This document shows positions 22,512-39,699 of a stretch of 64,000 nucleotides of DNA, piece by piece. The DNA comes from Podospora anserina (lineage: Eukaryota), in contig CM030333.1 of assembly GCA_017654855.1 (NCBI GenBank), positions 3,534,001 through 3,598,000 on the forward strand, given 5' to 3'. The notes below the pieces were generated by a model. It saw nothing but the letters and a program-made list of their open reading frames with translations, was not told where the DNA came from and ran no database searches. A program made the translations under genes and the position numbers. The first letter of the stretch is position 1. Each line of letters starts with the position of its first letter.

Positions 22512-24236
22512 CTAAGCATCCCTGCGAAACGCATACTTCCAAAGCCCTCTAGGAGGCTCCGGAAGACCAGACTGTTCCTCCCACAGCTCATCTCCCCTCA
22601 CCAACCGCTCAACCTTCTCCTTCAACTGATCCTCAAACACCCTGGACCTCTCCTCCTCCCAAAATGGGTCCTCAATCGAGTAAGTGTGTTTGCTTGGTTC
22701 GACCAAGTTGGCGCAAAACCTGGCCAAAACCGTGTCAGAGGAGGAGTTCGGTTGACCCCAGAGTCGAAGGGGTGTGATGATACGATGGTATGCTTTTATA
22801 ATGGCGCCGCCCTGCTCCGCCGTCATGTCAACCCGGTCGTCCGGCGCGCCCCAGTCGCTCACATCGGCCATCACTACGCGGAGCGTCAGCCCGCGCAGGT
22901 TGAGCTTGTCCTTGGCCCAATCGACGGTAACGAGCCAGTCCTTCTGTGCGGACGAGTCGTCCTGAGGCCAGACTTCCCAGTTATACGGTGGGAAGACTAC
23001 TTCGAGAGAGCGGAGCATGTCGAGGCAACCCTGGGGAACGACGTCGCGGAGAAACTCGCTCACTGCGAAGCGATCGAACGGGTACTGGCGAGGCGACAGC
23101 TCCTCGTGGTTTGGCACGTCCGATGGGGAGGAGGAGTCGTAGTCGTGCACGACGAAGCGGTTCTGTGAGAAGAAAACCACCTGGGCGTCGAGGTAGAGGG
23201 TGCGGCAGATGAGAAACAAGTCGGTTGGGGCCGCCCAGCACCGGCAAGAATCCGAAGCGGCGGAATGCTGAAGACGGCAGAAGCAACCAATGGTCCAGCA
23301 TTCGACGAACTGGCATCCGTTGTGTACTTCAGGAGGGCACGATGCGCCGTACTCGCACCCGACGCGGCACAAGGAATATTTCCTGGATGTTCGACCTTGC
23401 CTACTCCATGTGACCTCGTTCCACGGGGTAATGAGGTCAGTATACTCGAGTATGCGGAGACGAAGCTCTTGTGGAAGCTTGAGCAAGTGACTGGCTAATG
23501 GCGCCGTCGAAGAGGACAGGCACGGCTTAGTGAGCGCATCGGGTGCCGTCTGGGTGATGCCACGAGCGTATTTGACGGCGACATCGGCAATCTGTTGAAG
23601 CTGGCTGTTTGTCTTCCGGCAGAGTCGAACGTGGCAGTTGGCCAATGGCGATAGGAGCTTTAGGGGCGCCACTGCCAGTTGAGCTGCCTCGACATCGTCT
23701 TCCTGAACGTCACAAACGAGCTTTATTTCCAGAGCTCGGGGGTTGACATGAGCCGACATGTAGGTAGCCGCGTCCGTCCACTCGGCAAGCATATCCTTCG
23801 TAGATGAGACCGAAAGAGTGGCCGGGGCTTGATGCAGGCCGCCATGGGCGTGGGAGCAGTAGGTCTGGCCATCGTAAGGGTATACACGTAGCAAATGGCA
23901 GCAGTATGAGTGGTTGCCGTCTTCAGGTTGATGGCACGAAGCCTCATTCAGAATGACCCTGAGTGAGGTTAAAGACGCCAAGGACCGGGATGTAAGAGAT
24001 CTCAAAGGCGCAAGGGAGTGAGGGCTGGTGTAGCGGATGATGAACCTGTTCCTCGAGTACAGCAAAGTAGATGCTTCCTGATAGATGATTTTGCAGGAAA
24101 TCAATAAGCCAAAGAATTCTGTTTCCTGGCCGTTCAACCTGAAAAAGTGCGGGTGATAGTCTGCCAAACCAACCCATTCATAGATCTGACGGCGTATGTC
24201 AGGAGACAGTCGCAAAAACGGGGGAGTGCACTCCAT
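22512..24236 (-). CDS. Hypothetical protein with two tandem F-box-like modules
   Basis: Intronless, 574 aa. PFLRLSPDIRRQIY...SCKIIYQEASTLLYSRNRF recurs as LLKLPQELRLRILEY...ICRTLYLDAQVVFFSQNRF. Confidence 0.8.
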   Translation of the reverse strand: MECTPPFLRLSPDIRRQIYEWVGLADYHPHFFRLNGQETEFFGLLISCKIIYQEASTLLYSRNRFIIRYTSPHSLAPLRSLTSRSLASLTSLRVILNEASCHQPEDGNHSYCCHLLRVYPYDGQTYCSHAHGGLHQAPATLSVSSTKDMLAEWTDAATYMSAHVNPRALEIKLVCDVQEDDVEAAQLAVAPLKLLSPLANCHVRLCRKTNSQLQQIADVAVKYARGITQTAPDALTKPCLSSSTAPLASHLLKLPQELRLRILEYTDLITPWNEVTWSRQGRTSRKYSLCRVGCEYGASCPPEVHNGCQFVECWTIGCFCRLQHSAASDSCRCWAAPTDLFLICRTLYLDAQVVFFSQNRFVVHDYDSSSPSDVPNHEELSPRQYPFDRFAVSEFLRDVVPQGCLDMLRSLEVVFPPYNWEVWPQDDSSAQKDWLVTVDWAKDKLNLRGLTLRVVMADVSDWGAPDDRVDMTAEQGGAIIKAYHRIITPLRLWGQPNSSSDTVLARFCANLVEPSKHTYSIEDPFWEEERSRVFEDQLKEKVERLVRGDELWEEQSGLPEPPRGLWKYAFRRDA

Positions 24237-25200
24237 GCTGTGATAATATTGCTGTTGGCTGGTATGCGAAAGCGGTCCGGTGTAGGCTCAGGTAAGGGAC
24301 GGTCAGAATATGAAGAAAGGGAGGTGTTGGGAGGAAAGTGTACCTAGCCTAGCTGGCGCAGGCGGCAAAGAGTTGTCATTGATTTTGGGTTGCCAGGGGT
24401 CTACAGTTGAGCCACTCATGGCAGTGCTAAAGGTGGGGCAAGGTAAGGTAGCGACTACTGAGCCAGTAAGCGACCTCAGGTGCCTCAAGTGTGTACCTAT
24501 GTCTTTCGCCCGTATTGCGGAATCCGGGCATCGTGTTCAGGGTCGGTGTGCCGCGACGTCAACACCAACGTCACGGCGGGATGCGATGGATATGTTTGGT
24601 TTCATCAACGTCTACAAATAGACATATTGGGCTTCAGCGACCGCATCGTGTGTAACATGCGCCCTAGTAACACTGCTTGCTAGATTCAGCCCCAGACCTG
24701 CTCGGCCAACTCAAGCACCGCACAAAGGCAGGACAATGTCTCACATCGTCTGGCTGCCGCTATCAATTCGTAATCTAGGTGCTGTATTAGATACTCTCGT
24801 GACGGGACGGCCTGATGGCCACTTCCATGTCTGCGGCAATGGCCTTACGCCGCCGTCCAACCCGTTCGTTATGAGCTAGTGTTTGAGGTGTCGAGGTCTA
24901 AAAACAACTACCAAGGTCTATCATGAAGATATTCCCAACTCAAGTACCGCGTTCAGCAGTATAAGAACTCAAGAGGCAGACTGCATATCACAGCTTCTAT
25001 CCTCATCACTACTCACTCAACACAGCATCTTCTTTGTCAATCCCTCTCTCATCATCATTCTCGCTAGCCGAGAATCAACGATCTTCGTCAACAGGTTCTC
25101 ATTATCATTTTCCGCTCCCATCGCTAAACGAGAAGCCATCACCCTTACTCTCTAAACACTACTTTTTTCCATCAATAACCCCACCCCCCCTTTCTTCAAT

Positions 25201-26343: not shown

Positions 26344-26451
26344 AAAAGAAAAGAAAAGGGAAAAAGGTGAAGAGAAAGAGAAAAAAAGAGAGAAAAAAAG
26401 AGAGAAAAAAAGAGAGAAAAAAAAAGAGAGAGAGAAAAAAAAGGAAAAGAA
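26344..26451 (+). repeat. Polypurine tract with imperfect (GAGAGAAAAAAA)n units
   Basis: About 108 nt with a single pyrimidine; 26369-26451 is purine-only. Confidence 0.9.
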
Positions 26452-26927
26452 CATCACCCTCAAACAGAAACAATCCATCATCAAAACTCCTCACAAATAG
26501 ACATCTGCCGAAAGGCCTATTTCAAAGTTTGAACCACGCTTCAGAGACCTTTTCATTTCCGGTAAAATCTTTGTGTCTCGCTATATGTGCAATGGGTGCT
26601 ATCATGACTTTTGCCCTACTAGACTCTTTTCCCTACCCACTTGACCACACGACCATGTGCTGAAACAATATCTCGGTGAAGTCAAAACAAGAAGTCTATG
26701 AGATCAAGGATATTGCGACCTGTATTTCAGGACACCCATTCTCAACCTGGTCTGGCGATGGAGTTTGCAAAGTGCATATGCGTGTGGATAGGTATATAGG
26801 TAAGATACCTTACGGAAAGAGCTTTTCTAGCAGGTAAAATTATGCGAGTATGCAAATAGTTTGTAAAAATATACTATGCTTAGTTCCCGCCCACAGCACA
26901 AAAATATCCACCTCCTCTCACTCCCAC

Positions 26928-29726
26928 TTAAACAGGCGGCACCCTCCCCCCCTCACAAACCCCCGTATCCGTATAACAAGCCGTAAACAACCTATCGCTC
27001 GCCTCCCCAATCCAAACCGTATACCTCTTCCCCCCAACCCCCGGCACAACCCAGTTCTGCAGCTCCGTGTCCCACACGCTCAAGTCCTTCCTGGTCAGCT
27101 CAACCGTCACCGTCTCCTCCTCCCCCGGAGCCAAAACCCTCGTCTTCTCAAAGTCCCTCAGCTGCACAACAGGCGTATCATACGGGATCCCCTCAGGATA
27201 CTGAACATAAGCCTGCACCGAAGCCCGTCCCGAGAACGTATCCCCAGTGTTCTTGACCGTAACTGGGACACGGAAAGCAATATCCCAAAGCGCAGGATTA
27301 CCCCCCTCCCCGCCACCGGCTGCGGGACCGGGCTTCTGGGCGGTGCTGTACCCAGCGGGATAGTTATACTTCTTCACCCCGGCGATACCAACAGCGTAGG
27401 CGTTATCCGCGTCGTTCTTGTTGAGCCAGGAGTAGAGGTACCGCCAGATCCTGTTGAACCCTTCCGGCCAGTACGCCTCTGAGGCGGGGGGGATTTCGGT
27501 CGAGTACACCGGCGTTGAGCCTTTGGGGGCACGGGCAGGAGGAACCAGAGACAGTGGAGTGACAGACTCGATGGTGGCATCAAACGAGAAGTTGGTGTAG
27601 CTGAGACCGTGGCCAAAAGCAAAGCGGGGCCTGATCTTCTCCTTGTTGAGCCAGCGGTAGTCAATGTACAGGCCCTCGCTGTACGTGTCCTGGACCTGAC
27701 CAAAGGCAAAGCCACGGAGGTTGGCGATGCTGTCGGGGAAGTCGTTGGCGCGCTTGGTGATGGAGTAGGGAAGGTGACCGCTAGGGGAGACATCGCCAAA
27801 GAGAATGTTGGCCAACGACTCGCCCGCTTCTTGACCGGGAAGGTGCTGAAACAGGACGCCCTTGACGCGAGGGTTGTCGATCCAGGATTCGAGATCGAGA
27901 GGGCCGACGGTTTGAGCTACCACAATAACGTTGTTGTACTTCTCGGCAGTCTTCCTGACCAGCTCGTCACCGTTATGCCACGCAGCCAGCTTGGCACTGT
28001 TGCGATCACCGTTGTTGCCCTCAACAGTGAACGAGTTCTCTCCAGCATCGGAGGTGATGAACACGATGGCAACGTCATCGGGCGACGGTGTAGGGTGGAA
28101 CCAAGGGAAGCCGTCGGTGTTGAAGAACTTGACGTCGGGAACCCGCTTCCTGATAGCCGAGATCGGGTCATCCAAGTAAGGATAATCGGCAACACCAGAA
28201 CCCCAGCCCATGCCAAGTGTTCCTTTGTTGCAGGCGCGGTTCATGCAAGCGTTGGGCCCATCGGGGTTGACCTGGGCAGCAGTACCGAAGACATGGAGAG
28301 ACTGCGAAGTCGTCAGGGGAAGGAAGCTCCCATTGTTCTTGAGAAGGGTGATGGCATCCTGGGCGACCTCTCTGGCGATCAAATAATGATCAGCCTGAAC
28401 ATTGACAAACCAGTTCACCTGACCCTTGGGGGAGAAGAGAGCTGCAGGATAAAGCAGACCGTCACGGTCACGGGTGTTTGACGAGAAGTTAGGCCTTGGG
28501 TGGTCCCTATCCTGACCGAACTTGTACCATGTCGCGACGATTCTGGTGACCATGTCGTTCAGTCTGTCAAGAGGCACAGACCCGTTGAGAACCGATCTGC
28601 TGAGCTCATAGTGCCAGTTGCTGAAACCAAATAGGGGAATGTTGGTGTCACCTGGCATGTTCATGTCGAGACCTGCCAACGCGGAGTCGACTCCGGAGAT
28701 GTGGGACAGCCAGTCAGACATGACGAAGCCCTGGAATCCAAGCTCATCCTTCAAAATACCGTTGATGAGATAGCTGTGCTGAGAGCAAGCAGACCCGTTT
28801 ACAGCATTGTAAGCTGTCATTGCCGACCCAACACCGGCATGGACGGATTCGGCAAAGGGCCACAGGTAGAGCTCGTGCAGAGTCCGATCATCTGTGGGGA
28901 GTCAGCCTTTTAGTCCGTCAAAGAGCAAGAGTCCACTCACCAATATTGGCGCTATATCCAGGCTGGAAGGGGTTGTACATTCTATACATCTCCTGCTCGT
29001 TGCCGATCAGATGCTTGATAGTAGCAATGATGCCTTGTTCCTGAACGCCCTTGATCGTCAGGGCAGCAGCCTTGGCTTGAAGAACTGGGTCAGATCCAAA
29101 GCCCTCCCAGTTGCGGCCACCCAAAGGCTTCCGCCCAAGAGGGCCTACGGAAGGACCCAGATAGACATTTGTGCCCTTGCCGCGATGCTCTTCACCAATA
29201 GCAACACCACGAGCATAGATCAGCTTCTTGTCAAACGTTGCACCAGTGGTGATGCCAGCAGGAAACGCAGTGACGTTGTCAGCTGACGACACACCTAACG
29301 CAGAGTCCTGAAGACACATGCGCGGGAACCCCAATCTTTCTGCGCTTCCAGTATTTCCTACGCATGGACTAGCGTATCATGTGTTAGTCAAAATCAGAAA
29401 AACGTCTCATTAGGGTGGTGGCACTGACCCTATTCACATGTCAGTCAGTCTCTTGTGCTTTTATATAAGCCATGTCTGGTTAATAACTCACCCATAAAGA
29501 TGCCAATGCCTGAGGTGATGTTGGTCTTTTCAGCCAAGGTCATCTGCGAGACCAAGGCTTCGGCCTTGCTGTAAGCCTCTTCCCACGAAGCGACCCATCC
29601 TCCATGAGGCGCTGGATAGTATGGGGCAGCGACGAATCCAGGCGGAACAGGATCTCGAGGCGTCACGACGCTGGCGGCAAGAGAGGTGGAGGCGAAGGCG
29701 CCCAAGACTAATGAGCGGTATGCCAT
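26928..29726 (-). CDS. Secreted GH3 beta-glucosidase
   Basis: Signal peptide, [40 protein letters not shown], catalytic GFVMSDW, C-terminal Fn3-like region (QLRDFEK). Three introns, two of them adjacent (see findings). Confidence 0.96.
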
Positions 29727-31959
29727 GTTGAGTATCTACGCCGGTGAAGCCCTCGCGACGGGATATCGAGCACAGACGGCGCACGTATTCCAAGCTCCGG
29801 GTTCTGGGACCTGAACCTAGGAGGCTTGAACCGAAACGACAGATGCAAGCTTGCGGGGTTGGCAAAGCAGAGCAAGCTGGCCGGCGCGCCTCCCGACCTG
29901 GTGGTTATTAATGCACTTCATGTCTCGGACGACTCCTCTTTGACGTTACCTTCCCCAAGGTCAGTCGTCCAAGATGGGGGTATTGGGCGCCACAAACACA
30001 TGGCACCCAAGGAAACACTCTGTAGCATGGTGGAGGCTGAACCAAATAACGATGGTCAATACAAGCGGGCATAAACCGCTTTGAGATTACGGTGTAACCG
30101 TCTTTCCCTCGATCAGGGAATCGTCGACGCGTTGGAGCGCTCTCATTCGTCCGCGTAGCCATCGCGACCCAGAGATCAGCCTCATAGGAGCAGCCAGCAG
30201 CAGGCATCACATTGATGATCACATCCTTCTCGAGGCCTGCATAATCGGTTCCTGAACATCCCTCTTTGCTGAAATATTGTCTTGGGCACTCATTTTCCAC
30301 CCTCACCGGCATCGTAAGGTAACGTCAGGCAGCATAAAGTATGGGGGAGGTAGCTGAACTGGAGCAAGACTGAGGCGGGGAACCTTGCCCGGCCCGCCGT
30401 CCTGCGGGAGTGACGTCGTCAAAAGGCCCGTTAAAGGCGGGAGAGTCGCATCCCCAGATCAGGTGGTTGCCATCTGCAGGTCCAACAAGGCAGGTTTGGG
30501 GAAGAGCCCCGGCCAGAAACTCCAGGTGGGTGATCAGATCATAAGCATGTGCTTCTTGTTGATATGCTCCCGCGTATATGACCATGTCCAACGGTCCGCG
30601 TATCGTGGGGTACCAAGGTGAGCCAGAGACGATTCAGATTGTTCGGATGGGCGCGATGCAACGTCGAGGCGGATTAATCCGTCGAGCGAGTGAATTCTCC
30701 CGAAGCAGTCGGCTGTGGTAAGCGATGCTTGGCCAGGTAGGTCTGTGGGTCTGAGGGTCCGCATGACTTGGTCTGTTTTCTTTGGAATGTTTTGGCGTGG
30801 TTTGGGGTGAAGATGTGTGAAGATGCTCCCAAGAACACGGGGCGCAGAATGGCAGGTGTTTTCTTCCTGTCCTTTTCTCTGCAAGCGATGTCTTCGGCTG
30901 GGTCTTGGCTCTTGCCGGAAACCTTCCCCCACACGGCCCCCCCTAGAAGATGGAACTATTCCTCACAGGAACTCGTAAAACAAGAGCCAACAACTCTCGC
31001 TGCATCTCCTTCTCTTGTCTTTTGTTTTGGCAGTTGTCTTTTGGAAAGCACCTCGTCGTCTGTTATCGCCTCGCCGGAGTCGCCAACCATCCCATGTAAC
31101 GCAAGACGGACGGTCTGTGCGGCAACAAGGCCTGGGCTCAGCGAGCCGTCGCCGTTTAAGCGCCCTATCGGTTCCTGAATATCTTCAGTGCGCACGGTCG
31201 CCATGACGCTATTCAGGGCATGAAACCACACGGGGAGCATGGCACAGCCCGCATATCGCGTGCAGGTGGACGCGGGTCCGCAGAAATTAATTTGTTCTTC
31301 AACCATTCTTCTTGCCTTCCAGTTCCTTGGCGATTTCCATTCCCGCGGCCAGTCCTCAATGCTAACCTGGGTCGCAGCGTAACACGTTCCCAATCATGGC
31401 TCATCCGTGGTTCACGGCATCTCGCCTGTTTTCCTCCATGATCGCCGTCGAATATTGCTTCATGGAACATGTGTATGGATATTCTGGAGAAAACTATCAG
31501 TACTATCGATTACAAATCCTCTTGTTCTCCGCTTGCCATATCGTGATTTGGTAGGGGGCTCACCTGGATAGGAAGTTCCACGGTTCAAACGGCCATCTCC
31601 CCACCACCGATTCTAGCCTGTAGCCGGCGTTGCCCTCCCTTTTCGGTGAGCACGGCGGGGCAGAGAGACGGATATTGATCACCACCGTTCCTGAACTTAT
31701 CGCTAGTCTTACTCGGCTATCTTGTGCTTATCCTAACCCCCTTGCGTGATGCGAACCCTTGTGGGGGGCAATGAGACATCCCCCCCTTCTCAGGATGTAT
31801 TCCCCCTGCCCGGGAGGGCTGGCATTGTTGTTGTATGAATAGTATATAACAGCAGGGCGCATCGTGGTATTACCCCAGATATTCGTCCCAACCATCCCAG
31901 GCCTCTGTCTCTCTTTTGTATTCTTGGCCCTATCAACCTTCCTTTAGTTTCCAAGCATC

Positions 31960-33267: not shown

Positions 33268-35250
33268 CTATGCCAGCCATATATCTTGAAACTCTGAATC
33301 ATCCTCCATCGCCTCGCCGTCCATTATACTGTAAACGTAAGCTGCTCCAACCATATGATGCACAACATCTCCTCCCTTCTGCGTCACAGGCCTGATAACA
33401 AACGGCACATGCGCACCGGGGAATATCACAACTTGGTCACCGACCTGGACGTCCTGCAGCGTGGTCCCCGGCCTTCCCGTGCTGTCAACAAACGAACGCT
33501 GTCTTTGGACCTTGCAAGCACCGAGATACATGAATAGGTCATTGGGTAGCTCTGTTTGCTCCTCGTCATCTACATCGGACCAAGACTGTTTCTTGCCTGT
33601 CAATATCAAGGTTTCAAACCCGGCGAGAAATACTTCTCCCCAAAGGCCATCGTCCGCTCGGGCCGTCCCGTCCACGTCAGAGTCGAGAACGGGAACCCGC
33701 CAGACGTTCTCGAGAGTCGAGGTTAGGAATTCCGAGTTACCTGCGAGAGAAGCTCGGTACGTCTCGAGCATATCGATGAGTTCAAACAGCCATTTTGTCA
33801 CAACTGCGTACCACTCTGCCGAATACTTCTGGACGGTCATGTCGACCAAGGTCTTCCCAACGTTGGCAACTCGGCCAACTATCCGCCCGGGAAGAGAAAT
33901 GCGCGGCTCCCCATACGCAGCCTGACCGATTTCGGATCTTGCTGACCATTCCTCCCAACTCGTCCCCTTGGTGGCGTGATATAGGTTGTTTATAGGATGC
34001 CGATCCTCGACTTTGACTGCAAGGGCGGTGAGGAACTCAGATGTCTGGTCAATGACCCATGATGGGATCGCAGCAGGGTGATGCTTGACGCTGAACAGTC
34101 TTTGGTAGCTGCTTAAAATGTTTGGGCCGTACTTCATCAGCAAGACCTTGCTCACGTCGAAAGACGCTCTTTCCATGGTGTTGGTGCTTGAGTAATCAAC
34201 CGGGATTTTGCAGCGATCCTCGGGTTGCACCATCCCCAGGATGCCGTATATCATGTCCCTCTCGTCGGTAGCGGCAACCGTGTTGGACTGGAAGGTCACC
34301 TCCAGAGCCTCGAAAAGGGAAAGTCCGGCCTCTCCTACGCCTCGTTCCTGGGCATTGATCAGGCTGGCCTCGTATTTCGTACTCGCCGCCTCGAGATGGC
34401 CAAAGATCCCGATGATGATGTTCACGGCATTGGCCAGGTTAGAATATTTGTCGTCCCCGATGCGCAGTACTCGGTGCGACACCGCCAGCAAGACAGACCA
34501 GATGTCTTTGACGTCTTCCCAGAGCACGAATTCATTCCCACAGAGAACCATCGCCGCCTTGGCGAGCACAACCTCCTGAACGACCCACACGCGATGCCAC
34601 CACGGCCGGTCGAAGAATAATTTCCACAGAGCTTCAAAGTCGAGTCGACCATCTTCATCACCACCACTGTCGGCGAGCTCGACCACCTCCTCTCCCAAGC
34701 GGGCCATTCGCTCCTCGAACTGGAGGTCCTCCCGGTCAGTGATGGTCTCAATATTGATGTACCCTTCATCGGTCGAGTCCCGGTACATAGCCGCCAGTGT
34801 CCTGATTGTCTGGAACGCGCCCCCGTCCGGCTCGGGCCCGAGCCAGATCAGCACATTCTTTGCAAGAGAGTACACCGAGCTCATGAGCCGAACCTGCACG
34901 GCCTTTTCGTCGTTGTCGGACTGGTTGATGCAGATGGCGTCGATCCATATCCGCACCCTCACCTGGGAGGCGTGAAGCTGGGTGAGGGCCGTGAAGAGGT
35001 TTTTGGTGACTTGGAAAACATGACCGTCGAGGATGATGGGCCGGGTGTCATTTGCGTCGCCCCAAACGTAGGAGAGAGCATTGTAGACCGGTGCAGGTTC
35101 GGCATCGAGGAACGCGTGGCTCAAGCTGAGGTTTATGGAGGGTGAGTCGCCTAGATTCTCATGGCTAAGGGGTGGGTTGACAAAGTTGAAAGTGAGAAGG
35201 CGAATCTCGTGTCGGTCGTGGTCAAGGGGCGTATAGGAAAACATGTTCAT
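33268..35250 (-). CDS. HET-domain protein (HET-6-like)
   Basis: EIRLL, YNALSYVWG, IWIDAICINQSDNDEKAVQVRLMSSVYSLA, RPWWHRVWVVQEVVLA, ATDERDMIYGILG, VGAAYVYSIMDGE. Confidence 0.93.
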   Translation of the reverse strand: MNMFSYTPLDHDRHEIRLLTFNFVNPPLSHENLGDSPSINLSLSHAFLDAEPAPVYNALSYVWGDANDTRPIILDGHVFQVTKNLFTALTQLHASQVRVRIWIDAICINQSDNDEKAVQVRLMSSVYSLAKNVLIWLGPEPDGGAFQTIRTLAAMYRDSTDEGYINIETITDREDLQFEERMARLGEEVVELADSGGDEDGRLDFEALWKLFFDRPWWHRVWVVQEVVLAKAAMVLCGNEFVLWEDVKDIWSVLLAVSHRVLRIGDDKYSNLANAVNIIIGIFGHLEAASTKYEASLINAQERGVGEAGLSLFEALEVTFQSNTVAATDERDMIYGILGMVQPEDRCKIPVDYSSTNTMERASFDVSKVLLMKYGPNILSSYQRLFSVKHHPAAIPSWVIDQTSEFLTALAVKVEDRHPINNLYHATKGTSWEEWSARSEIGQAAYGEPRISLPGRIVGRVANVGKTLVDMTVQKYSAEWYAVVTKWLFELIDMLETYRASLAGNSEFLTSTLENVWRVPVLDSDVDGTARADDGLWGEVFLAGFETLILTGKKQSWSDVDDEEQTELPNDLFMYLGACKVQRQRSFVDSTGRPGTTLQDVQVGDQVVIFPGAHVPFVIRPVTQKGGDVVHHMVGAAYVYSIMDGEAMEDDSEFQDIWLA

Positions 35251-35564
35251 TGACAAGTTAGCGAATTGTTCTGAAGGGTATTTCTCATGATTCGCATGAC
35301 ATTACACAAGGCTTCTTTTTGGCTTCAAGAGGGGTTTCATGACGTATACCTGTTGTTTAGGCTATTGTACTACTTGGCATTCATCAGCCATCCCATAGCT
35401 AAACCGGTGCTTGAATGCTTGTCTTGGGGATAGTTCTCACCCACCAATTACAACCGTTCAAAATCACCAACAACACCCCTTTCTGTAGTTGTCAGCACCA
35501 AAAAAGCATCGCAGTACTTCCAATTGGATGGCAGCAGATAGAAAAGGTGAAAAAAGAGCCAAAA

Positions 35565-35824: not shown

Positions 35825-37883
35825 CTACGCAATAATCAGCTCCCTCTCTTTAAACTTACAATCCACAAACTTTGTTAATTCGCCCATGCCAACCCGGACG
35901 TATAGATCCCCAAACTCAGCAGAATTTTGCTTAACCAACAGCACATTCAGAGACTGCCTCTGCTCATCCTCTTCGTCCACATTCCGGGACACAACAACCG
36001 CCATAAAAGGGCCAGCAACCCTATCCCCACGATCAAACACCCCCCAACCAAGGACCTCCTCAACATCACCACCCAACAGAGCATAGCACGCAGAATGCTC
36101 CTCAAAATCGATCACATAAGCATGGATATCACAACCCACATTCCCCAACCTCTCACCAGAAGATCTCACCACCTCCACAGTCAGGCCCCTCAATAACAAC
36201 CTCGCCTCTCTAACCATTTGATCATCAGGCATCACTCCAGACGGCACACCCCCTTCAATTTCCACACAACACTCCACCCTGCCCTCCGGAACAAACGGCT
36301 CCCACGCCACCGGTCCTTCCAACGAAGCCCAAGACCAACTAGGTGCTCGCCGCGTCCACTTGGTCGTCTCCCTCAACTTCACTTCCTCCATCGCCCGATT
36401 CCCATCCGCACGCCACATCATATTCACCGCAAGCATGTCACTCCCCGGACCCCCAGCAGCCACCCCTACGCAAAACGAAATACTATTCCTCATATCCCTA
36501 GCCTTGACATTGGCAATCATACCTTCAACAGCAAATAACTTATCCTCGCCAAAGGTGAGCTCACACGCGGTGTAGTTCTAAACAATGGCGCACCACGCCC
36601 AGGCGGGACCGTGGGAAACGGAGGCGCTGCTGCCGAGGCGTTTGTCTTGATGCTGCGGTCACCAGTCAGTTACATGCATCAAGGGAAAGGGGGACGGTTG
36701 TTGATCTCACTGCTGCCAAGACAAGACCATCCTCAGCAACACTATGCCGGATACACTCAAAGAACAGCTGTCCAACAGAAAACAGGACAATTCTCCGGCT
36801 CAGATTTCGTTCCTGGAGGACCCAGCCCCTGCTGTTCCATACGCTCGCAGTGACGACTTTGTCAAAGGATGGGGTATGTGGTCCTACGAAGAATGTTCGG
36901 GGCTTTGTACGTCCCGGTGGTAGGTAAGAGAGCTCAATAACGGGCTGACTTGTGGTGGTGTCTCGAGGGTGAAACAAACCGCCGGTGGACGAGCTAGAAC
37001 CCGTCGCGGCAATGGTAAGGTGGGCGTTCTGATAGATGAGGCCCATTTGGGGTGCCTCTCGCAGCCAGTCGGGGCTATCATTCTGGATGATACAAAGGGC
37101 GTCAATCCAGAGGTAGCGGAGGCCGAGATTCCTCGTTGCGATGACGGCATCGCGGAGGGTCGCTGGCATGGCGGATATGTTTATTCCCGTGGTGGTGTGT
37201 TCAGCCAAGTTCGACTTGAGGGTGCGAAGTTGTGTGGCTGCTGGACCCCAGCAGTAGCTCAACGCCGCGTATCGTCCCAGTGCATTCTGACGATCCGTCA
37301 GTTTGACAAAGGGGGTGTTGTTAGTCCCGACGTCCAACAGCCTGGTGGGAAAGCGGGTTGTGGATGATGTGTCTGCATCCGCCAAGGGCACAGAGTTGCA
37401 CTCTGTATGGCTTCTCAGACAGGTTTCGAGCCATGTCTGGATTTGGCGGAAAGCTCCAGGGGAGTTTGGTGCTGGATGAAGAGCGTGGCCGGCAATATCC
37501 CCAGATAGAGCTGCATCACTTGATGGATCTGCCCAAGCGTGCAAAAAAGCTCGGGCGTTGGAATTAGTTACGAGAACTGTTATTACACAGAGCTCACGTC
37601 TTGTGTGTTCTACCCTGTGGTATTTGTCTGAAGACAGAAGTACCTGGTGTACCCTCCCTTTCTTCAGCTTGATGGTGGGGCACGAGGTTTTGATTAGCTC
37701 GTCAAGTATTAACTTGCAAAGCGGACAGAAACTTGAAGACTGCCCCAGGTCTTGATAGGTTCGGTGGCGGTAGCCGAGCTGTTGACCGGTGGCTGTTGTG
37801 CGTATGGATGAGACTGTAAATGGTGATACACCACGACAGGAATCGCAGAGGCCCGAGGTGCTTTCCGTGTTCAGAGAGCTCAT
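35825..37883 (-). pseudogene. HET-domain gene with one in-frame premature TAG (36580-36578)
   Basis: FPTRLLDV, YAALSYCWG, YLWIDALCIIQ, WNSRGWVLQER. Phase-0 intron 36710-36653, then HQDKR...WAWCAIV*NYTACELTFGEDKLFAVEG, continuing in frame into the 35825-36520 ORF (RAPSWSWAS). Confidence 0.8.
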
Positions 37884-39699
37884 GTTTGCCTGGTAATCTT
37901 GACACGACTCAACAGTAAGGTCAGGTATCAAAGGTGGTGATACTGGTTTAGGCTGGAAGCAAAGGAATAGACGCAAGTCCAACAACCAGACCAATGGTGC
38001 CTTTTCTCGCCGCTTTTTGCTCCAATCAAGTGACGGTTCCCTGTACTCTTTACTTGGTCGCTATCTACAGACAGCTGCGCCGCTCACAAAAAACTTACCC
38101 ACGCCGCATAAAAGAATCAGCAAAATATCTCCACGGAACGTTACCACTATTGTCGATGTTGGTGTTTGGATGCAGCAACGTTGGTTATGGTGGGGCTCGG
38201 CAAGTTTCCCTTCCACATGACGGCACGGCACGATGATTTCCAGCCAGGGTTTCGGGACCCGGCAGCTGGACACGATGGCCCGTGCCAAGAACATTCCAAC
38301 GAGAATCGAGAAGATCATCAAAAATAGATCCATCTTCACCCGGGAGGCCAAAACAATCGAAGATCTTTCAAGTTTCACTTCAGCTGAAGATCATGAAGAT
38401 CGACCTGAAACCACCTGGAATGTGATGAGTTGGAGGCTTTGGAATCGCAGATGCAACCACAACAGTTCGGCATAAACAAACTGAACGAATCGACGGAAAT
38501 CAGAACAGCCACCTCCACATCTCCTCCGCAAACCTCCTTTCCACCACCACGAACCACGACAAGGGTTGTCTTCCGAAGGGCACAAACGGGCACACGGGTA
38601 GGAGCAGATGGCGCAAAACAACGCCTTCTTGCATCCCCATTCCCGTATCTTTCTTTTTGCCGACGGACCCCTCAACGTCAATATTACCGGCCCAATTCCT
38701 CAGAAATGGATGCCTCGGACTTCGGCACTGGAGGCAAGTTTGAGAGGTCGATAAAAAATCCCAAAAATGGAAATGCAAAAATACCGCTCTGACCAACATC
38801 AAAAGATTCAGGTCCCCACTGTCCCATCAACGTGGCTCGGATCAAACCCCAAGCGTTCTAGGCTCTTGGTTGGCGTTCAATAGTGACAGCTTGGACAGGA
38901 GGCCATCATGCCAGTCACTTGTCTGCAGCCCAATCATCTCGGGGCGAAATCGAATGCCCATCCCCATACACAACAACTCCCATCTGATGCTGGCTCTTGG
39001 GGCTTCCCAATGTGGGAGGTAAGGTGTTTGCTGGTCACTGCAGCGAGTGCAGTGTGAGCGTTATTCCGGGCATCCAGTGCGGCTGGAAGCACTGATGGTG
39101 TGGATTGGCGGTGATGGAGTGATTCGAGATGAGCCCAGCCAATCACATCGGCTCCTTTCGGCAAGCAGCCCCTCTTGGCAGCTCTTGGACCCTGGGATTC
39201 AGACGAACAAGCACCCCTGTCCCCAATAATACGAACGTGGGAAGCGAACAGGGGGGGCCGGATAGGATAAGGCAGAGGTCGAGGCTTGGGTGAGATGCGG
39301 GATCCGCATTCGCCAGGGGGTCACAAGGTTCATGCAGGCCTCACTCCCAATCTCCTCTCTCAGCTCGTCGACGGAAGAGAAAAGAAAAACCGATATGAAG
39401 AACGCCGCTGCCGCTCACATCGGCCTGTGGGTCGACTCCTGTTCTTCTTCTTCTCTTTCTTCTCGAACACCCCGTTTGTGCGACAGAAGAGACGTTCAGT
39501 CTTTCTTCTTCTCGGGCATTGTCGTCTGCTGTTGTCCGATCTTACATACGTTCGCTTTCCGCCATATCATTCACTCGCTCACTCGCTCGAATCCGAGACG
39601 AGATCTCACACATCGTACAACCCTCGCTATATAGACTCGACATTTCCGTCATAATACCTAATGTTTTAGACAAGATCGCAACCAGAGAACCGAGACACA

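Follow-up and report, generated by a model that had tools for sequence, protein, structure and literature searches.

Glycine codon of a GH3 gene very probably split by two introns

The stretch analysed here, 64,000 nucleotides (nt) of Podospora anserina contig CM030333.1 (positions 3,534,001 to 3,598,000 of the forward strand; hereafter the window, with all coordinates given as window positions), carries on its minus strand a gene for a glycoside hydrolase family 3 (GH3) beta-glucosidase, in which one glycine codon near the start of the protein is interrupted twice, so that an exon of very probably a single nucleotide, G29429, is left between two introns. With this G kept, the coding sequence is 2628 nt (875 codons) without an internal stop, and the predicted protein is collinear across the junction with the database homologues P0004 and P0005. 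The stop-to-stop open reading frames (ORFs) of the window are compatible with a gene in four pieces. The product contains the three domains PF00933, PF01915, and PF14310 (GH3 N, GH3 C, and Fn3-like), all above their cut-offs, and has 3876 homologues with E values of 1e-50 or lower. A comparison with the PDB matches 42 GH3 chains of distinct sequence (best E value, 7.5e-50); in the three of these that were inspected as alignments, GH3 beta-glucosidases align from the P/C of the P-C-V-G-N-T-G motif onward, so that these codons are coding, and use of an acceptor further downstream would thus delete conserved residues. The nearest named relative is Apiosordaria backusii (Sordariales), with 94% identity over the large exon. 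The gene is predicted to code for an 875-residue GH3 beta-glucosidase of a Sordariales fungus, and the product is presumed to be secreted, judging from its hydrophobic N terminus.

The layout of the junction had been proposed in an earlier sequence-only reading of the window, and it is correct to the base. Exon 1 ends with ...TTT ATG G at 29492 and is followed by an intron in phase 1, a lone G separates this intron (intron A) from a second (intron B), and exon 3 opens with a T at 29368 followed by the P-C-V-G-N-T codons (Table 1). Introns A and B each have a canonical donor, branch motif, and acceptor of their own and are of normal length, the gene's other intron being 49 nt. In intron A, CTGAC occurs twice with overlap (29448-29440), 15 and 11 nt from the 3' end, and intron B has a CTAAC at 29387-29383, 15 nt before its end. 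When the interior of the intervening sequence of the window was shuffled 5000 times, 2.4% of the shuffles contained an AG-G-GT with at least 40 nt on either side, and 0.08% contained one with a CTRAY branch motif in both parts as well; the arrangement in the window exceeds chance.

Contigs lacking both introns in three sequencing runs

Twenty-four sequencing runs are listed under one organism label, and 20 of them contain the stretch. Fourteen are flagged "RNA? (a guess)" and hold 0.83-0.88 of the sampled words, and the six unflagged runs stand at 0.96. Contigs were compared over positions 26800-29900 for X1, X2, and X3, which are guessed to be RNA and come from three studies, and for the unflagged run X15. 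In X1, X2, and X3, one contig each joins 29367 to 29490 with 122 nt skipped, the cut sliding by up to two places, and the same contigs join 28891 to 28941 with 49 nt skipped and GT..AG ends on the minus strand. The skip covers 122 of the 123 nt that lie between 29492 and 29368, which fits one base kept between two removed segments. The mature junction that had been predicted from the sequence, M-G-P-C-V-G-N-T-G, matches the joined contigs of all three runs, and the contrary outcome named with it, a single intron to 29358 with a 134-nt skip, fails, as the contigs show 122 nt instead.

In X15, the DNA contig runs collinear with the window, and all four runs are free of inserted or deleted letters relative to it. 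Three T>C differences (27522, 29284, and 29296) are common to all four, DNA-like and spliced alike, and most simply reflect a difference between strains. The flanks in the window agree with those of the joined contigs, which also share these three differences with X15 and therefore come from this locus. These contigs correspond to the gene minus exactly its intervening sequences, as expected of complementary DNA (cDNA), the RNA nature of the runs being guessed.

A technical origin of the pattern would take one of two forms: either the window assembly is wrong by one base, or the joined contigs represent DNA from copies without introns. In favour of such an origin are the guessed RNA status of X1 to X3 and the possible closeness of X15 to the source of the window. 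Such an artefact is nonetheless hardly conceivable, given the lack of insertions and deletions in four runs, the recurrence of the same architecture in independent metagenome contigs (described below), and the agreement of the joined contigs with the window flanks and with X15's three differences; moreover, a DNA copy without exactly both introns would itself copy a spliced messenger RNA (mRNA).

Table 1. Parts of the GH3 gene in the window, in order of transcription; X1, X2, and X3 are the runs with joined contigs
Feature	Position	Strand	Description
Exon 1, coding part	29492..29726	-	From the ATG at 29726 up to the G that opens the split Gly codon; 235 nt; covered in the X1, X2, and X3 contigs
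Intron A, 62 nt	29430..29491	-	Donor GTGAGT, CTGAC branch motifs, acceptor AATAG; missing from the X1, X2, and X3 contigs
One-nucleotide exon, G	29429..29429	-	Second base of GGT, the Gly codon of M-G-P-C-V-G-N-T-G; position inferred
Intron B, 60 nt	29369..29428	-	Donor GTCAGT, CTAAC branch motif, acceptor GCTAG; missing from the X1, X2, and X3 contigs
Exon 3, 428 nt	28941..29368	-	Last base of the Gly codon, P-C-V-G-N-T-G, and some of the GH3 N-terminal domain
Intron C, 49 nt	28892..28940	-	Ordinary GT..AG intron with CTGAC branch motif; joint of 28891 to 28941 in the X1, X2, and X3 contigs
Exon 4 to stop codon	26928..28891	-	Remaining GH3 N-terminal domain, GH3 C-terminal domain, and Fn3-like domain

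Splicing paths that give the joined form

All one- and two-step removals, nested and tandem, with GT/GC..AG or AT..AC ends were tried by a script. In this exhaustive enumeration no one-step canonical intron reproduces the joined form, and the sole canonical pair that does so, in either order, is 29491-29430 with 29428-29369, which leaves G29429; the Gly codon is then assembled from 29492, one G, and 29368. The single cuts that reproduce the joined form are GT..TA (29491-29370), TG..AG (29490-29369), and GA..GT (29489-29368), none of which is canonical.

Single canonical introns of other lengths do not fit and were rejected. The intron 29491-29369 (123 nt) leaves the G out and joins 29492 directly to 29368, for which a stop had been predicted; translation in silico places it at codon 82, and the product is not the joined form of the contigs. 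A 119-nt intron from a donor at 29487, four bases downstream, to the acceptor at 29369 gives G-D-P-C, and a 134-nt intron from the donor at 29491 that uses the TAG at 29360-29358 as acceptor stays in frame, as had been stated, and translates as M-G-N-T-G. Neither the 119-nt nor the 134-nt skip is in the contigs.

A nested arrangement can also be considered, namely a stwintron, where one intron lies inside another and splits the donor, branch site, or acceptor of the outer one. It would be in keeping with a Pezizomycotina gene that has two U2 introns one nucleotide apart, as in the one-nucleotide intron shift described in PMC5587772. The enumeration, however, gives the tandem pair only; no nested path exists, the signals of neither intron are interrupted, and one base is kept, leaving the chance that this is a stwintron close to nil. 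The junction had been called related to but distinct from stwintrons, and rightly, as each intron is complete and either may be spliced out first. A recursive splice site with a zero-length exon was rejected as well, as one G stands between the AG and the GT and 122, not 123, nt are removed.

Conservation of the internal splice sites in orthologous loci

A profile search with the large exon retrieved 80 metagenome loci, of which 71 matched both junction peptides, three matched exon 3 only, and six matched neither. The 45 loci whose exon-1 match reaches the final Met were analysed. The 26 whose exon-1 match ends before this Met were set aside; they are mostly paralogue-like (39-51% identity over the large exon), and three of them (L059, L080, and L075) have one intron at another position. 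Among the loci that match exon 3 only, L004 and L020 lie on cut contigs that retain a branch motif, together with an acceptor placed one base ahead of the Pro codon.

At the site of the junction, 22 of the 45 loci are intron-less and 23 have an intervening sequence. Four of the 45 have one phase-1 intron of 45-56 nt (G/GT..AG/GN, where slashes mark exon-intron boundaries), two have an intron at another position, and 17, representing 14 distinct sequences, have 100-201 nt of intervening sequence with the one-nucleotide-exon architecture. These 17 follow the pattern G/GT...YAG/G/GTNNGT...YAG/N, then a Pro or Arg codon, giving G-P or G-R, with an intron A of 50-124 nt and an intron B of 48-92 nt. 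The longest intron A, that of L002 (intervening sequence, 207 nt), is 124 nt, about twice as long as in other loci, and contains further GT/AG combinations; several alternative micro-exon solutions exist on paper. Separately, L019:1840-1960 and L021 have no intron in the Gly codon and are related loci with an intron directly after the C-V-G codons, at another position close by within this motif.

With the window included there are 15 distinct sequences, and when these are anchored on the kept G, the AG, the G, the GT, and the donor +5 G and +6 T are each present in 15/15, with a CTRAC-like motif about 11 nt upstream, and donor positions +3 and +4 vary. A conserved AG-G-GT in orthologues had been put forward as a check on the proposed exon, and it is found, as AG/G/GT, in every distinct sequence. 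The intron interiors have median pairwise identities of 0.54 and 0.51, versus 0.52 for shuffled partners. By chance, an AG-G-GT leaving two parts of at least 40 nt occurs in 1.2-13% of shuffles per sequence, and one with CTRAY in both parts in 0.22% or fewer. The strict branch test, which requires CTRAY 6-40 nt before the acceptor in both introns, is passed by 11 of the 15. Invariant signals set against randomised interiors read as the signature of selection on the internal splice sites, and because AG/G/GT is conserved in the orthologues, the retained G is very probably that at position 29429.

Several observations weigh against a one-nucleotide exon. The donor of intron B (GTCAGT after G-G) falls short of the optimum, and four of the 15 distinct sequences fail the strict CTRAY test: L017/L018, L022, and L030/L070 have CTGAA just before the acceptor of intron B, and L036 has CTGAA 26 nt and TTGAC 13 nt before it. 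The 15 sequences share descent, so 15/15 does not amount to 15 independent trials, and for this reason the conservation argument rests on the contrast of invariant signals with randomised intron interiors. The RNA status of X1 to X3 is a guess, no listed run being on record as RNA, and contigs cannot show splicing intermediates, lariats, or rare isoforms. Finally, the mature form does not tell which of three G's was kept, as three single cuts fit the joined form equally.

The last of these observations is the basis for an account in which a single 122-nt intron with noncanonical ends is removed in one step and the internal AG-G-GT is irrelevant. All three cuts do give the joined form exactly, with a joint that slides by two places, and no intermediate was observed in data that consist of contigs only. 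The ends that such an intron would have to use, GT..TA, TG..AG, or GA..GT, are not normally used by the U2 spliceosome, however, and the account leaves unexplained both the conserved AG/G/GTNNGT (15/15) with its upstream branch motifs amid randomised interiors and the doubled length, 100-201 nt compared with 45-56 nt in the single-intron orthologues. A single noncanonical intron is consequently quite unlikely, and it is very probable that two complete U2-type introns of 62 and 60 nt flank the one-nucleotide exon G29429.

Splicing of introns A and B would then be sequential, by intron definition. The acceptor of intron A and the donor of intron B would be too close together for simultaneous engagement, and removal in either order would leave a normal intron behind. 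The process would resemble recursive splicing, except that one base stays in the mRNA.

Public protein models at the junction

The 120 best database homologues (P0001-P0120), which are Sordariomycete GH3 enzymes, were sorted by their pattern at the junction. Collinear models (M-G-P/R-C) make up 25 of the 120; eight are without P-C-V, including those of Apiosordaria backusii and Neurospora hispaniola, 34 have extra residues at the junction, 23 are otherwise different, and 30 are without the N terminus. It had been anticipated that gene finders would miss an exon of this kind, and the public models are indeed inconsistent at exactly this junction. Judged by this comparison, many deposited sequences of this beta-glucosidase group are probably wrong at the conserved Cys-containing motif, although some of the differences may be genuine. 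Four homologues (P0004, P0027, P0062, and P0081) are ORFs of 876-885 residues on contigs of 3.0-4.0 kb that read straight through the junction, as M-G-P-C in P0004 and P0027 and as M-G-R-C in P0081, with P0062 classed as collinear. These four contigs look like transcripts, of genomes that may or may not carry the one-nucleotide exon.

The divergent models bear on the alternative that the functional mRNA uses one canonical intron, of 119 nt (M-G-D-P-C) or 134 nt (M-G-N-T-G), and that the 122-nt form is not the main product. Both options are canonical and in frame, and introns of this kind are used by public models, namely the eight without P-C-V and the 34 with extra residues; the Apiosordaria backusii model reads M-G-N-T-G. 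Nevertheless, all three spliced runs skip 122 nt and none of the four runs has a 119-nt or 134-nt skip, M-G-N-T-G loses a Cys that aligns with solved GH3 structures, and the four transcript-like homologues read straight through the junction. This alternative is accordingly very unlikely as an account of the main product, although the 119-nt and 134-nt forms may occur as minor isoforms, since contigs drop rare variants.

Phylogenetic spread and proposed origin of the second intron

A quick maximum-likelihood tree of 55 rows, which is unrooted, was used to place the loci; 13 loci with an assigned intron state but no stop-free match of at least 250 residues were left out, as were two of the 26 named proteins. 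One Sordariomycete clade (Shimodaira-Hasegawa-like approximate likelihood ratio test [SH-aLRT] support, 97) contains every one-nucleotide-exon row that was placed, 15 in all, and 14 of these form a clade together with Sordariales and Coniochaeta (SH-aLRT, 98). The remaining row, L036, adjoins Ceratocystis, and its best named match is Lomentospora prolificans (Microascales, Hypocreomycetidae). As placed in this tree, the one-nucleotide-exon loci are spread over Sordariales-, Coniochaetales-, and Microascales-like branches.

L003 adjoins Echria macrotheca (support, 99) and is nested among the one-nucleotide-exon loci, and it has a single 45-nt phase-1 intron (L003:3481-3531; G/GT..AG/GA). Intron B appears to have been lost secondarily in this Sordariales lineage, which retained the G and reverted to a single intron. 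Dothideomycete-like loci have one phase-1 intron or none and are placed near Glonium and near the Dothideomycete genera Clohesyomyces and Westerdykella. The position of intron A, in phase 1 of the Gly codon, is common to the single-intron Dothideomycete-like orthologues, and intron B is in phase 2 of the same codon; because the intron A position is found in single-intron orthologues, intron B looks like the added one. We infer, from a quick unrooted tree, that the intron A position is the older and that intron B was gained, one base downstream of it, at an early stage of Sordariomycete evolution.

A more far-reaching proposal is that this is the oldest and most widely kept one-nucleotide exon, that it predates the split of Sordariomycetidae and Hypocreomycetidae, that it is under selection, that it arose by gain of the second intron, and that it is used as a splicing switch. 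Taken as a whole this is unlikely to hold. That skipping would act as an off switch had also been suggested from the sequence; in silico it yields a premature stop, and no skipped form occurs among the contigs, which drop rare variants. If the switch were real, skipping of the G, with its stop at codon 82, would yield a null transcript or one targeted by nonsense-mediated decay, from a gene for a secreted enzyme of the cellulase system.

Surroundings in the window

The GH3 gene is flanked by minus-strand ORFs of other kinds. A DUF7730 ORF lies at 22512-24287, and two ORFs with heterokaryon incompatibility (HET) domains lie upstream of the GH3 gene at 33268-35301 and 36666-38060. These neighbouring genes in the window suggest no link to the gene with the one-nucleotide exon. 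About 490 nt downstream of the GH3 stop codon there is an AG-rich tandem repeat (26370-26439; period of 12-14, about 4-5 copies), which reads as K/E/R-rich low-complexity ORFs.

Comparison with known systems

Full-text searches of open-access papers and bioRxiv turned up no published one-nucleotide exon for any GH3 or beta-glucosidase gene. Exons of this kind are already known but very rare, and the GH3 gene is a further case, notable for its phylogenetic depth and its comparative series. The closest parallel is that of Nelson and Syed 2026, who describe a one-nucleotide exon in Fusarium CYP621A P450 genes and regard it as the second known 1-nt exon of any organism and the first fungal one (PMC12940212). 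The two cases have in common AG/G/GT with the G as the middle base of a Gly codon within a conserved motif, short canonical introns on both sides, and a total intervening length of about twice that of a normal intron (PMC12940212). Support for the CYP621A exon comes from public transcript reads and an alignment of orthologues, and automatic models are wrong there, as they are here (PMC12940212). They differ in that the present gene codes for a GH3 glycosidase rather than a P450 and is represented in Sordariales-, Coniochaetales-, and Microascales-like loci rather than in one genus, and in that the GH3 group also has single-intron and intron-less orthologues and one secondary reversion (PMC12940212). 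By the count in PMC12940212, which lists a single other nuclear one-nucleotide exon, the GH3 gene would be the third with such an exon and by far the most broadly conserved.

A plant example is the exon of Arabidopsis APC11, for which Guo and Liu 2015 report a constitutive single-nucleotide exon between spliceosomal introns and argue for intron definition with sequential removal (PMC4674806). The same sequential model is applied here to the GH3 gene. The APC11 exon was validated with protoplast reporter constructs, and the identity of the nucleotide is reported to be irrelevant to splicing (PMC4674806); unlike this reporter-validated plant case, the GH3 case rests on spliced contigs and conservation.

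Fekete et al. 2017 describe an alternative [D1,2]/[A2,3] stwintron and a one-nucleotide intron shift (PMC5587772). As in stwintrons, two U2 introns of a Pezizomycotina gene are in contact, with consecutive splicing and positions one nucleotide apart, but there the internal intron interrupts a signal of the external intron and nothing is kept, whereas here both introns are complete and one base is kept (PMC5587772). The discordant intron positions there belong to different species (PMC5587772), and in the GH3 gene both are occupied at once. Recursive splicing at a zero-length exon is described for Schizosaccharomyces pombe SPNCRNA.445 (bioRxiv 10.1101/226894), which is similar in that an acceptor closely followed by a donor lies midway through an intervening sequence that is removed piecewise, and in that this site is conserved in relatives. 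It differs in that AG/GT in a noncoding RNA keeps nothing, whereas AG/G/GT in the GH3 gene keeps one coding base (bioRxiv 10.1101/226894).

Within one orthologue group, the GH3 loci form a comparative series: intron-less genes, genes with a single intron, genes with two introns separated by one base, and a reversion. This series makes the minimal size of an exon, the order of intron removal, and one-nucleotide intron "shifts" testable in tractable filamentous fungi.

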